Below are positions 21,992 to 25,282 of a stretch of DNA of 29,282 nt, one piece after another. This DNA is from an uncultured Gammaproteobacteria bacterium (GTDB lineage Bacteria > Patescibacteriota > Patescibacteriia > UBA1558 > 2-01-FULL-52-15). The notes beneath the pieces are model-generated. The model saw nothing but the letters and a program-made list of their open reading frames with translations, ran no database searches and was not told the DNA's origin. Position 1 is the first letter of the stretch; every line of letters starts with the position of its first letter. The stretch lies in the NCBI GenBank assembly GCA_964475975.1, contig CAYYYA010000001.1, positions 29,254-58,535 on the forward strand, given 5' to 3'. Made by a program: the position numbers and the translations under genes.

Positions 21992-23056
21992 TCAGCTCAG
22001 GCGCTCGATGACGCTAATCAAAGAATTCGCCAATGCCGGAGAGACATCGACTGTTGTCGCGAGGCCTCCTGTCCTCATCTGGTAGACGGTCTTCTTCCTT
22101 GGTCCGCGAGGGCGTGTATTGCCGAAATAGATGTGGTCAAACGGACGGTCGCTTTTGCGTGGCAGCAAACGGCGCTTCCACGAGTTGCTGCAGACAGTGT
22201 GAGTCGCAATCAGCCGAACTGAGAGCGCACCAGAACGTCGCAGGCCGACAGCTGTTGTGGAGCTGGTAGCTCCTGAGTCAAGCTCGTCTTCACGCATGAA
22301 AACGTGCAGACCCGCAACAGCAGTCATATCAGTAGTGACGAAGATGTCGGTACCGAACTCCTTGTGAATCCGCTCAAGCAGACCATCGGTATTCCCGAGA
22401 CTCGTCACCACACCATCGATCCGCTTCTTGTCAGAAGCTAGTACTCGCGTTTTGGTCAGTCGCGCCATGATAATAGCGCGCTCGACAGAGCCGTAGTCAG
22501 GTGAGTACCAGATCACGTTCTCGGGGCCATAGCTGAGGATCAGCGGCATTACTTCTGCAGCGAACAGGTGGCTCGGATCTGCAATTGTCAGTTGCAGGCC
22601 AAATTCGTTTGAGAAGTCGCTGGTGTTTTTGACATTGTGCGGATCGCAGACGATGAGGTAGTCGACACCAGCGTCCTTCATTCGCTTCATGAACCACCGT
22701 AGACGGGTGATTTCATTGGTGTAGTCAGGGTGATCCTGACGACGATAGCGCAGGAAGCTCATGACGACGGTAACAGTCGCGCAGAAATATTGGTACTTGC
22801 ATGCCGTTACCATGTCGTACATCTGAAGCTCTTCTTCGTCATCTGTGACGCTGACGAAAATCACTATGTGCTTCCCAGCTATTTTGTCAGGATTTTCCAG
22901 CTCAAAGCCCCGTTCGTCGTCTGCCCACTCATTGAAGTAGATGTCGGTGAAGTCCAGGTGTCGATTGAGACGGGCGCTGACAATGCCCAAGGTCCTCTCA
23001 CCAAGCTCGTAGTTCAGCGTGCCACTATAGAAGATCAGATCATCTGGGTTGACCAC
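21992..23056 (-). CDS. prs: Divergent ribose-phosphate pyrophosphokinase (PRPP synthetase family)
   Basis: FLRYRRQDH (cf. YARQD), CDPHN (cf. DLH), SPDYGSVERA, DKKR, EDELDSGAT (cf. DDMIDTGGT), ATHTV; GTG start with an AGGGGGT SD. Confidence 0.82.
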   Translation of the reverse strand: MVNPDDLIFYSGTLNYELGERTLGIVSARLNRHLDFTDIYFNEWADDERGFELENPDKIAGKHIVIFVSVTDDEEELQMYDMVTACKYQYFCATVTVVMSFLRYRRQDHPDYTNEITRLRWFMKRMKDAGVDYLIVCDPHNVKNTSDFSNEFGLQLTIADPSHLFAAEVMPLILSYGPENVIWYSPDYGSVERAIIMARLTKTRVLASDKKRIDGVVTSLGNTDGLLERIHKEFGTDIFVTTDMTAVAGLHVFMREDELDSGATSSTTAVGLRRSGALSVRLIATHTVCSNSWKRRLLPRKSDRPFDHIYFGNTRPRGPRKKTVYQMRTGGLATTVDVSPALANSLISVIERLS

Positions 23057-24008: not shown

Positions 24009-24093
24009 TGGCTCGGGGATAGGGACTCGAACCCCAATTAACGGGACCAGTTTATCCCGCTGAGCGCAGTGAAGCGGGAAACCCGTCGTCCTA
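24009..24093 (-). pseudogene. tRNA-Gln(CUG) 3' portion (position 20 to CCA) with a 29-nt insertion between positions 33 and 34
   Basis: Identical to the intact copy apart from the insert TCCCGCTTCACTGCGCTCAGCGGGATAAA (24051-24079). Its 5' 15 nt lie at 24470-24484. Confidence 0.85.
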
Positions 24094-24112
24094 TTCACCC
24101 CGCCAATTTTAG

Positions 24113-24445
24113 CTATTTTCTCTCGATGGCTCGGGGATAGGGACTCGAACCCCAATTAACGGGACCAGAACCCGTCGTCCTACCATTAGACGATCCCCGA
24201 ATCATCGAGAGAAAATATTTAAAGGCATTACCGCCTTTCCAGTTTTTTATCTGCTTTTCTCGTTTACGTGCCTCGTTGTAACTATTGAAGTTTTCGACGT
24301 GTATCACTTGCCACGGCCTATATGGTCGAGTTGAAGCAACATTACCGTTATTATGCCTTTTTAAACGTTTAATCGGGTCTAAACTGGTAATGCCAGTATA
24401 GTACCTATTATCCCTGTTTTTGAGAATATATAAGCAAACATTCAT
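24113..24445 (-). CDS. Small GIY-YIG endonuclease (UPF0213/SLX1-like); its C-terminal tail is encoded by the tRNA gene
   Basis: LYIL..YYTGIT..KRLKRHN.G..STRPYRPW..EARKREKQIK motifs; likely start ATG 24445; stop TAG at 24113-24115, beyond the tRNA CCA. Confidence 0.9.
   Translation of the reverse strand: MNVCLYILKNRDNRYYTGITSLDPIKRLKRHNNGNVASTRPYRPWQVIHVENFNSYNEARKREKQIKNWKGGNAFKYFLSMIRGSSNGRTTGSGPVNWGSSPYPRAIERK
24127..24200 (-). tRNA. tRNA-Gln (anticodon CTG), intact, 74 nt with encoded CCA
   Basis: TCGGGGA acceptor pairs with TCCCCGA-G-CCA; D-loop TAATGGTA; anticodon arm ACGGG-TTCTGGT-CCCGT; T-loop GTTCGAGTC. Confidence 0.95.
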
Positions 24446-24469
24446 TCTCAAAAAAAATGGCGGGGCAAG

Positions 24470-24484
24470 TTAGACGATCCCCGA
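24470..24484 (-). pseudogene. Orphan 5' fragment (nt 1-15) of tRNA-Gln
   Basis: TCGGGGATCGTCTAA, identical to 24186-24200, sitting directly behind the promoter. Confidence 0.85.
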
Positions 24485-24507
24485 ATATCAATAATAAATG
24501 CTATGAA

Positions 24508-24536
24508 AAGATACTATTTTAATGATAGTTTGTCAA
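24508..24536 (-). promoter_or_regulatory. sigma70 promoter of the original tRNA locus
   Basis: TTGACA-17 nt-TATCTT; a divergent TTGACA..TGtTATTTT at 24547-24574 serves the methyltransferase. Confidence 0.6.
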
Positions 24537-24613
24537 TAATATTCAATTGACAATAACAGGTGCTGTGTTATTTTAATCCTATATTAAGTAATGCTAGTAA
24601 TAATTTTTATATC

Positions 24614-25282
24614 ATGACTGCAAAAGGCTCTGTCTCTCACTACGATGATATTGGTCAGGAGTATGTAAATAATCAACGCAATTTTTTTACAGATAAGGAA
24701 GATTGGACTCGCAAAAAATTGCGATCAGAGCTAGTAAAATTCACCAAGAAAAAAATTTTAGATATTGGTTGCGGAGCTGGTGATGATCTAAAGTGGTGCG
24801 AAGAACAGCACATAGATGGTTTCGGTATAGATACTTCCGAAAAAATGTTAGAGTTGGCTCGTAGTACTGTTAAAAATCCGCAGTGCATACAGCAGGGTGA
24901 TTACGAGGCTATTCCTTACCCTAGTGAACACTTCGATTTAGTAATGGGCAGGTTTTCGCTCCATTACCTTAATAGTTTTCGGCAAGCATATTTAGAGACA
25001 GCAAGGGTGTTAAAAAAAGGTGGAACCTTGATTCTTATAGTTAGTCATCCTTTTTTTGATACTTATATATCAACTGAAACCGGAGAAAAAGAAATAATCT
25101 CCGTACCGCTATATGAGGGAAAAGTAGTGGTTAAGTTTCCTCCGCATAAATTAGCTGACTATTTTTCATCAACCTTTTTGAGTCTATTCGATCTTCAAGA
25201 AGTAGTAGAGTCAGAATCTGTAGACGCTGTTAATCCTCGAAAGATCCCTGAGACGCTTTATTTTATGGCAGTAAAGAGATAG
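24614..25282 (+). CDS. Class I SAM-dependent methyltransferase
   Basis: ILDIGCGAG motif I, GIDTSEKML, FDLV..FSLHY, RVLKKGG; likely start ATG 24614. Confidence 0.88.
   Translation: MTAKGSVSHYDDIGQEYVNNQRNFFTDKEDWTRKKLRSELVKFTKKKILDIGCGAGDDLKWCEEQHIDGFGIDTSEKMLELARSTVKNPQCIQQGDYEAIPYPSEHFDLVMGRFSLHYLNSFRQAYLETARVLKKGGTLILIVSHPFFDTYISTETGEKEIISVPLYEGKVVVKFPPHKLADYFSSTFLSLFDLQEVVESESVDAVNPRKIPETLYFMAVKR

Follow-up and report, generated by a model that had tools for sequence, protein, structure and literature searches.

A putative selfish cassette, carrying a miniature GIY-YIG nuclease gene and a replacement tRNA-Gln, in the D-loop of a bacterial tRNA-Gln(CUG) gene

A tRNA-Gln(CUG) gene of an uncultured bacterium is split in its D-loop by a 376-nt insert that contains a miniature GIY-YIG nuclease gene and a second, complete tRNA-Gln(CUG) gene. 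The locus lies in a 29,282-nt stretch of contig CAYYYA010000001.1 (assembly GCA_964475975.1; this whole stretch is referred to as the window), and the genome to which it belongs (G000; 0.93 Mb, 43.7% G+C, 78 contigs, 94% complete) has Patescibacteria-like relatives. We consider it probable, at odds of roughly two to one, that the insert is a horizontally acquired, site-specific selfish cassette that resides in the D-loop of the resident gene and replaces the tRNA that it destroys. Judged from sequence, the ends of the cassette are the two arms of a GC-rich hairpin, whose loop would hold the nuclease gene and the clamped, complete tRNA-Gln as cargo, and we infer that the cassette is moved by its own nuclease. 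With its tRNA, the nuclease sits inside the hairpin loop, and it is thus the obvious candidate for mobilising the hairpin.

The features of the locus are collected in Table 1. A preliminary description, made from the letters alone, had placed a promoter, tRNA nt 1-15, a hairpin arm with a T8 run, the GIY-YIG gene, a complete tRNA-Gln, a second arm and the rest of the tRNA in this order on the minus strand, and had reported inverted-repeat ends, a D-loop TGG missing at the junction and the lack of an integrase or transposase; all of these points were upheld. The order was confirmed by open reading frame (ORF), ARAGORN, Rfam and repeat searches. The two arms, L and R, pair with one another, the energy of the duplex being -30.2 kcal/mol as compared to -17.6 +/- 3.6 kcal/mol in shuffled sequences, and the same arms are present in the four other lineages described below. 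At the insertion junction the D-loop TGG (nt 16-18) is gone and the outer gene resumes at nt 19; the outer bases that are retained are all identical to those of the inner copy (71/71). An A/T-rich spacer of 21 nt separates the inner tRNA from arm R, and the non-coding parts of the insert comprise 24 nt from the L arm to the ATG and 33 nt of spacer plus R arm. Integrase or transposase domains were found neither in the ORFs of at least 120 amino acids (aa) between 16.8 and 29.0 kb of the window nor in the 376-nt insert. The short region upstream of the nuclease ORF contains no convincing promoter of its own, the group I intron model (Intron_gpI) gave no match at E values up to 1, and no Rfam family other than tRNA was matched at the locus. 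The inner gene is the only full copy of the CUG isoacceptor that ARAGORN and Rfam found in the assembly, tRNA-Gln(UUG) being located on another contig, and it encodes its CCA end, whereas the inner tRNAs of the other lineages do not. The resident outer gene is split, lacks G18/G19 and carries a second hairpin in its anticodon loop, and is thus predicted to be dead.

Table 1. Features of the split tRNA-Gln locus, given as positions in the window; all lie on the minus strand
Feature	Position	Strand	Evidence or remark
Promoter TTGACA-17-TATCTT, sigma-70-like	24536-24508	minus	10/12 matches; leader extends to 24485
Outer tRNA-Gln(CUG) nt 1-15	24484-24470	minus	Identical to inner nt 1-15; position corresponds to the intact gene start in G001/G002
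Left hairpin arm L, CTTGCCCCGCCA	24469-24458	minus	Inverted-repeat search; directly 3' of outer nt 15
T8 run	24457-24450	minus	Directly after arm L
Mini GIY-YIG gene, ATG at 24445, ~81 codons up to the tRNA	24445-24201	minus	Pfam PF01541
Clamp-helix leader arm TTTTCTCTCGA, within the last nuclease codons	24215-24205	minus	Inverted repeat with trailer arm
Inner complete tRNA-Gln(CUG)	24200-24127	minus	ARAGORN; Rfam tRNA model 57.7 bits
Clamp-helix trailer arm TCGAGAGAAAA, then stop codon of the read-through frame	24126-24116	minus	Repeat, fold, covariation
AAAAT and right hairpin arm R, TGGCGGGGTGAA	24110-24094	minus	Inverted repeat with L; directly 5' of outer nt 19
Outer tRNA-Gln nt 19-32	24093-24080	minus	14/14 bases as in inner copy
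29-nt hairpin module TCCCGC...GCGGGATAAA at 33/34 of the outer anticodon loop	24079-24051	minus	Predicted fold; sole copy in genome
Outer tRNA-Gln nt 33-74 with CCA	24050-24009	minus	42/42 bases as in inner copy
82-nt insert (E90) between outer CCA and third 3'-end copy	24008-23927	minus	81/81 match on contig C5
Third copy of the last ten tRNA bases CCCCGAGCCA, then ancestral trailer CCAGCCAGAGACTG	23926-23917	minus	Direct repeat

Contigs of three DNA runs and one metatranscriptome, all public and sampled from wastewater or freshwater in the course of three studies, were aligned to the region. The right junction (24021-24152) is matched with zero mismatches by contigs of all four runs and the left junction (24173-24499) with zero mismatches by the X1 contig, while the X2 contig matches positions 24139-24930 with 3 mismatches. 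The repeats of the locus (42, 15 and 14 nt) are all shorter than the apparent assembly k of 55. Because both junctions are bridged by independent contigs, recurring in four runs and three studies, an assembly artefact is ruled out. An empty allele, for which the preliminary description had proposed to look in relatives, also exists: uninterrupted tRNA-Gln(CUG) genes occur in two genomes of the same genus (G001 and G002) and in one of the same family (G007). The promoter and leader of the intact genes in G001 and G002 are homologous to those before the outer 5' piece of the window, and the trailer of the G001 gene (CCGGCCAGAGGCTGG) is homologous to the trailer that follows the third 3'-end copy in the window (CCAGCCAGAGACTG). 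In G007, the intact gene adjoins the same M23 peptidase gene as in the window. By these homologies the outer pieces would mark the ancestral tRNA-Gln gene.

The same ends and the same architecture were found elsewhere. Four further metagenomic lineages (L068/L069, L074, L075 and L076; GIY-YIG proteins 61-65% identical) have the full nested layout at the same D-loop site. In these lineages outer nt 1-15 end in TCTAA or GTGTAA and are followed by an arm, the nuclease gene, the inner tRNA-Gln, a homologous A/T-rich spacer, the second arm and outer nt 19 onward. Their left arm, CTTG(C/T)CCCGCCA, stands right after outer nt 15 and is cut short in L068/L069; their right arm, (T)GGCGGG(G/A)TGAAG, stands right before outer nt 19 and is interrupted in L074, and L076 has a compensatory replacement of C-G by T-A in arms L and R. 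All four also have a hairpin in the outer anticodon loop, which in L068/L069 has the same ends and site as that of the window and in L074 is of a related kind. The neighbouring genes differ among the lineages (FtsX and a radical SAM gene in one, a 3D-domain gene in another). As the outer 5' pieces differ by lineage while the insert is homologous, the pattern is the signature of one insertion element that entered one site in different hosts. The outer genes of L068 and L075 are dead because their acceptor halves cannot pair, and in L074 the outer anticodon-stem halves are unpaired. The outer acceptor halves of L074, in contrast, pair perfectly (TGCCAGA/TCTGGCA) and differ from those of the inner gene (TGCGGGA/TCCCGCA) at three base pairs. 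Since this outer stem pairs yet differs from the inner one, the outer gene was once a working tRNA of different origin, and the compensatory nature of the acceptor-stem changes argues that the inner tRNA came with the element. The closest relative of the nuclease (L064, 71% identical) has a commoner layout, in which nt 1-15, a complete hairpin, nt 19-25, the nuclease gene and a full tRNA follow one another without a 3' fragment.

Some of these loci bear additional inserts. In L074 (1600-1760) and L075 (110-140), the outer tRNA pieces contain up to four hairpin modules of several sequence types, which sit in the D-loop, in the anticodon loop, at the border of T-stem and acceptor and within nt 10/11; the modules also nest in one another, one L074 arm being interrupted by another hairpin. 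The near-identical groundwater contigs L068 (2960-4020) and L069 (1920-2010) differ by ~1.1 kb that includes a 289-aa ORF without a Pfam match, and since this difference sits right behind the 3' end of the outer tRNA, it represents a second kind of insertion at the same tRNA.

The nuclease encoded by the cassette is little more than its catalytic domain. The GIY-YIG domain (PF01541, E 8e-16) fills the protein, whose core is ~81-83 aa long, and the nearest solved relatives are the UPF0213 structures 1ywl and 1zg2 (E 8e-6). Catalytic-type residues are present in the translation (Tyr6, Tyr16, Arg27, His31 and Glu63), and by a reading of the sequences Tyr6, Tyr16 and Glu63 occupy nearly the same positions as residues of the Neisseria nuclease SsnA whose mutation abolished cleavage. 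The protein has no match in NCBIfam, PADLOC or PHROGs. Its frame has no stop before the inner tRNA and continues through the tRNA to a TAG at 24115-24113; the sequence past residue ~81 is translated tRNA, and a separate DNA-binding domain is absent. The five closest homologues in a large protein database are 61-71% identical and 106-119 aa long, the greater length arising because each frame reads into tRNA-Gln. This read-through is common to all six lineages (the window, L064, L068, L074, L075 and L076) and produces tails like GSSNGRT, and the spacing between nuclease and tRNA is constant: AFK, eight residues, then SSNGR or SANGR.

The inner tRNA itself is held in a leader-trailer helix that prolongs its acceptor stem, which in the window consists of 11 pairs without a mismatch (TTTTCTCTCGA/TCGAGAGAAAA). 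When the six lineages are aligned, their consensus fold extends the acceptor stem by 14 pairs, of which 11 show double-sided changes and few are broken. As this clamp helix covaries, the tRNA has evolved jointly with its trailer and with the last part of the nuclease gene under structural constraint, which may act on the RNA or on single-stranded DNA. The constant spacing, the covarying clamp and the difference between the inner and outer tRNAs of L074 bear out the earlier proposal that the element carries its own replacement tRNA.

Isolated copies of the hairpin lead to the same site in other tRNA genes. In the outer anticodon loop of L075, both arms are joined via a 2-nt loop to form a solo module. 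We refer to joined arms as solo modules; these were sought in one genome per prokaryote species (596 Gb), allowing 1-8 loop bases between arms with 22 fixed bases. Joined arms were found in at least 120 genome stretches, as compared to ~0.5 expected by arithmetic, and among the matches listed they belong mostly to Patescibacteria of several classes. For 35/81 of the copies read, a tRNA gene is no more than 500 nt away. The typical module is a 23-30-nt unit flanked by D-arm halves (...AGCTCAG, module, GTAGAGC...) that follows tRNA nt 15, the tRNA resuming at nt 18-20, in genes for Ala, Thr, Ile, Lys, Tyr, Ser, Gly and Asn; this is the same D-loop site as that of the window insertion. In most cases the module is part of a 5' fragment that closely precedes an intact tRNA, and a GIY-YIG gene may or may not be present. 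Among the 41 genomes searched of the window's order (its own included), the solo module was found in none, nor was a nuclease more than 53% identical to that of the window. Because the module and close relatives of the nuclease are absent from these genomes, the window cassette looks horizontally acquired. The letter-perfect module was also seen, among the matches listed, in metagenome-assembled genomes labelled Gammaproteobacteria, TA06, Verrucomicrobiia and Bdellovibrionales (L079, L080, L082, L094, L129, L146 and L155), which reflects either wide horizontal spread or mislabelled or contaminated bins.

Small GIY-YIG genes are associated with tRNA genes in G000 and in its relatives. In G000 each of the four GIY-YIG genes is closely followed by a tRNA gene of the same strand, and three of them are preceded by a hairpin-interrupted 5' fragment of the same tRNA (Gln, Asn and Ala). 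Small GIY-YIG genes occur in 36/41 genomes, with up to 16 or more in each. A tRNA follows within ~100 nt downstream of the GIY-YIG gene at 19/29 loci of relatives, and 15 of the 23 nuclease-tRNA pairs have exact 5' fragments of the same tRNA upstream of the nuclease. The nuclease protein tree has two well-supported clades, from both of which tRNA-Gln genes were colonised. The type of tRNA is clustered on this tree, requiring 11 changes as compared to 16.5 in shuffles (0/200 shuffles were as low). GC-rich hairpins near the tRNAs of G000 in general show a modest excess (8/77, versus ~3.5% of the sequence), and most of them are terminator-like. The other three GIY-YIG loci of G000 (C12:1-420, L003; C8:20560-21016, L004; C12:9750-10240, L002) vary in structure: one consists of tRNA-Asn nt 1-21, a 47-nt hairpin, nt 22-29, the gene and a full tRNA-Asn, another of tRNA-Ala nt 1-8, a 30-nt twin hairpin, nt 9-14, the gene and a full tRNA-Ala, and in a third the gene is flanked by two tRNA(CAT) genes.

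A selfish cassette of this kind could operate as follows. Transcripts would probably start at the ancestral tRNA promoter, extend over the 5' piece and the nuclease gene and continue into the cargo tRNA. Once the tRNA is cut out, the remaining nuclease mRNA would have no stop codon, and the nuclease level would thereby be kept low; ARAGORN found no transfer-messenger RNA gene in the assembly. The nuclease may nick or cut the intact tRNA gene, either as such or folded into a single-stranded cloverleaf or hairpin, and what it recognises may be the fold of a hairpin or cloverleaf and not a long stretch of duplex. A copy that bears the cassette would then serve as template for repairing the break in the previously intact tRNA-Gln gene, the two tRNA halves acting as homology arms. 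Once in place, deletion of the cassette would be disfavoured because the only tRNA-Gln(CUG) is in it. If the inner tRNA recombined with the outer 3' piece, the right arm could be lost and the common layout of fragment, nuclease and tRNA would result; the outer anticodon-loop hairpin divides the 56-nt repeat into parts of 14 and 42 nt and may make the nested form more stable.

Several observations weigh against a nuclease-driven, horizontally acquired cassette. The 83-aa GIY-YIG domain lacks the DNA-binding domain that lends known homing endonucleases their specificity, the intact inner tRNA still holds the presumed target, such that self-cleavage needs explaining, and the ratio of RNA to DNA depth is lowest over the nuclease gene. 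An empty-site or excision joint was not seen in the four runs, a weak test as only contigs were available and contigs drop rare variants. A cut at a fixed distance from the hairpin, as for SsnA, was dropped from consideration, as the tRNA fragments after solo modules end variably between nt 20 and 37, and the published SRM motif, the repeat associated with that enzyme, is not enriched in G000 (2 matches, versus 1-7 in shuffles) and has no match at the locus. Lastly, the inner and outer tRNAs of the window are 100% identical and have in common a lineage-specific stem pair (ACGGG/CCCGT, as compared to ACAGG/CCTGT in the congeners), which also fits a duplication in place. On the cassette reading, the cargo tRNA of the window was probably converted to the host sequence by the flanking host pieces.

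A narrower version of the cassette reading, which we hold only tentatively and regard as rather doubtful, assigns the 83-aa protein to a known biochemical kind. It would be a hairpin-specific, single-stranded DNA nuclease of the Ssn kind with the CTTGCCCCGCC/GGCGGGGTGAA module as its cognate site; the arms, nuclease and clamped tRNA would constitute the autonomous form and the solo hairpins its miniature derivatives. Spread would be directed to the loops of tRNA genes that have folded into single-stranded cloverleaves, as might happen during DNA uptake or at replication forks, by a mechanism that has yet to be described, and the host would be spared by the tRNA that is carried.

It is improbable that the nuclease is instead a domesticated enzyme that serves its host by cutting near tRNA genes and driving segmental amplification or repair, the fragments and duplications being by-products. 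The model for such a role is SegB, a GIY-YIG enzyme of phage tRNA clusters that amplifies a segment with tRNA-Tyr and segB (PMC13096335). The abundance of small GIY-YIG genes in the order (36/41 related genomes, up to 16 or more each) and the existence of tandem copies would suit this role, whereas the patchy presence and absence of the genes at orthologous tRNA sites, the lack of a PADLOC (defence) or PHROGs (phage) match and the foreignness of the cassette to the order do not, and the resident gene was destroyed rather than amplified. A host-serving role and selfish spread could, however, coexist.

That no unit ever moved is a still less credible view, on which the locus is a local scar: the tRNA-Gln gene was duplicated in place, the GIY-YIG gene lies between the copies by chance, and small hairpin repeats invaded the spare copy. 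It would account directly for the identity of the two copies over their 71 shared bases, lineage-specific stem pair included, and for the resemblance of the bases after CCA, 7/9 of which are alike in both copies. Tandem or partial duplications do occur at such loci (L005, L015 and L103), and hairpin-bearing 5' fragments are found beside intact tRNAs without any GIY-YIG gene. A scar of this kind does not explain how the same arms, the same nt 15|19 site, the homologous spacer and the nuclease-tRNA fusion came to be shared by four lineages with different outer tRNAs and neighbours; moreover, the 41 genomes searched of the window's order yielded neither the arms nor the closest relatives of the nuclease, and the gene of the congeners is undisturbed.

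Finally, it is highly improbable that the outer gene is a working, multiply interrupted tRNA in which the L-R helix and the 29-nt hairpin are intron-like inserts and the pieces are joined at the RNA level, as in archaeal split or multi-intron tRNAs: although the outer acceptor and D stems persist in the predicted fold of the 492-nt transcript, where the L-R helix extends the D arm, the outer segments have no point mutations and one compensatory L/R change exists (L076), a search of the genome (94% complete) for the tRNA-splicing endonuclease PF01974 found nothing, whereas it detected the enzyme in four archaeal controls, no group I intron was matched, the joined form was not seen in the RNA run (likewise a weak test, made on contigs only), the rejoined D-loop would lack G18/G19, the predicted fold has a symmetric 3x3 internal loop beside an 11-bp helix and not a bulge-helix-bulge, the outer acceptor halves of L068 and L075 and the outer anticodon-stem halves of L074 are unpaired, and the spliced tRNA would be a duplicate of the inner one. 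Accordingly, splicing was rejected for the outer gene, for want of a splicing endonuclease and an RNA joint.

A GIY-YIG domain without further parts, arms that form a hairpin, a D-loop as target and a complete replacement tRNA do not occur together in any of the systems with which we compared the cassette, and no published description of a GIY-YIG/hairpin/tRNA cassette was found in the literature. The nearest concept is that of the mobile ORF elements (mORFs) of fungal mitochondria (for example in Allomyces macrogynus atp6 and in Glomus atp6, atp9, cox2 and nad3), in which an endonuclease ORF, of the GIY-YIG type in atp9, enters an essential gene together with a foreign copy of the part that it displaces, the native part being left as an unexpressed remnant and the hybrid being expressed from the resident promoter (PMC3630166). 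The window cassette likewise joins a nuclease ORF to a copy of the displaced gene part and leaves a native remnant, but its target is a bacterial tRNA gene, it supplies a copy of the whole gene and not a C-terminal piece, and it has hairpin arms and a bare 83-aa nuclease domain. The foreign copy that characterizes mORFs is indicated here by the L074 acceptor pairs and by the covarying unit; in the window, where the inner and outer copies are the same, we infer the foreign origin. The nearest tRNA-linked GIY-YIG gene is segB, and the window protein shares its catalytic domain, with the residues intact. SegB is ~220 aa long and includes a DNA-binding part. It is a free-standing homing endonuclease encoded among the tRNA genes of phages T4 and T6 that cuts the tRNA gene region, which leads to preferred inheritance or amplification of itself and of neighbouring tRNA genes, and its homologues associate with tRNA genes across phages (PMC2330249; PMC13096335). 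Unlike the window gene, segB is intergenic and is without hairpin arms, a split target or duplicated tRNA pieces, and the window protein has no PHROGs match.

The nearest pairing of an enzyme with a repeat is that of SsnA of Neisseria meningitidis, a 94-aa, single-domain GIY-YIG protein of the Ssn group (cd10448) that is linked to SRM/NTS hairpin repeats; Ssn genes are often flanked on both sides by the cognate hairpin repeat, which also occurs in many solo copies, and the authors liken the layout to an insertion sequence (PMC11893778). The likeness extends to the ~90-aa single domain and to the Tyr/Tyr/Glu at nearly the same positions. That study makes no mention of tRNA (PMC11893778), and a cargo tRNA or replacement of the target is not known for Ssn. 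The window gene, in addition, is flanked by a different hairpin and has UPF0213 proteins as its nearest solved relatives. Integrase-borne islands and prophages also interrupt tRNA genes, bringing a replacement 3' part at the att site and leaving a direct repeat in the form of the displaced fragment; their integration depends on a tyrosine or serine integrase, and they span kilobases. In both cases the tRNA gene is interrupted yet kept working and a displaced fragment is left, but the window cassette has no recombinase, uses a D-loop site, supplies a whole tRNA and measures 376 nt. Transposable elements with hairpin ends and their miniatures are represented by miniature inverted-repeat transposable elements and by IS200/IS605 with its hairpins resembling repetitive extragenic palindromes. 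As in these, a cargo form and many short solo forms have the same hairpin sequence, conserved across distant hosts (PMC11893778, discussion). The window cassette differs in that it has no transposase family, targets tRNA loops, loses 2-3 target bases instead of duplicating them and travels with a replacement tRNA. From group I introns it differs in that the insert does not match a ribozyme core and its site is the D-loop, not the usual anticodon loop.

Selfish nuclease genes survive in essential genes mainly by means of a self-splicing intron or an intein. Replacing the displaced part is a rarer third route, known from fungal mitochondria, which is here taken in bacteria with a whole tRNA gene in 376 bases. 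The locus also physically joins two things, the mini GIY-YIG genes on the tRNA genes of ultra-small bacteria and a short GC-rich hairpin whose sequence is the same almost to the letter in distant uncultured bacteria. If the cassette reading is true, such elements would account for much of the tRNA-gene debris and many of the contig breaks in Patescibacteria genomes, would provide a route for the horizontal exchange of tRNA genes, and would be a source of very small sequence- or structure-specific nucleases that are possible tools.

Further irregularities at tRNA genes were noted in G000 and its relatives. The isoacceptors Phe, Ile, Val(UAC), Gly(UCC), Pro(UGG) and a full Glu(UUC) are missing from the assembly, and Rfam and ARAGORN detected no interrupted but functional genes for them. 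With introns allowed, ARAGORN called three 'tRNAs' with inserts of 556-1469 nt (C2:44383-45378, C10:6304-7865 and C32:7523-8169), which are probably false. Contigs break or gap exactly at the 52-55-nt 3' parts of tRNA-Asn, tRNA-Ser(CGA) and tRNA-Trp (C12/C49, C3/C50; N-gap C11:8539-8638), as fits branches in a k=55 graph that stem from duplicated tRNA 3' parts or mixed alleles, and tRNA loci of that kind may be under-assembled in general. In G020 (C1:82002-82252), copies of tRNA-Gln nt 1-33, nt 5-74 and nt 33-74 lie within 250 nt, in which the nuclease gene would not fit; this cluster may be a decayed nested cassette.

The 3' side of the window locus has an insertion of its own. The 82-nt insert behind the outer CCA has an 81/81 identical copy behind tRNA-Gln(UUG) on contig C5 (~22510-22725, L053), where another insert of 105 nt and a 3'-end copy of 19 nt come before it. 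The loop of the 29-nt hairpin is complementary to the 82-nt insert over 9 nt, which is about the level expected by chance for 1 kb. With its 10-nt direct repeats, the 82-nt insert looks like a 3'-side counterpart of the 5'-side cassettes, and a comparable series of tRNA 3'-end copies is present in G007 (L037).

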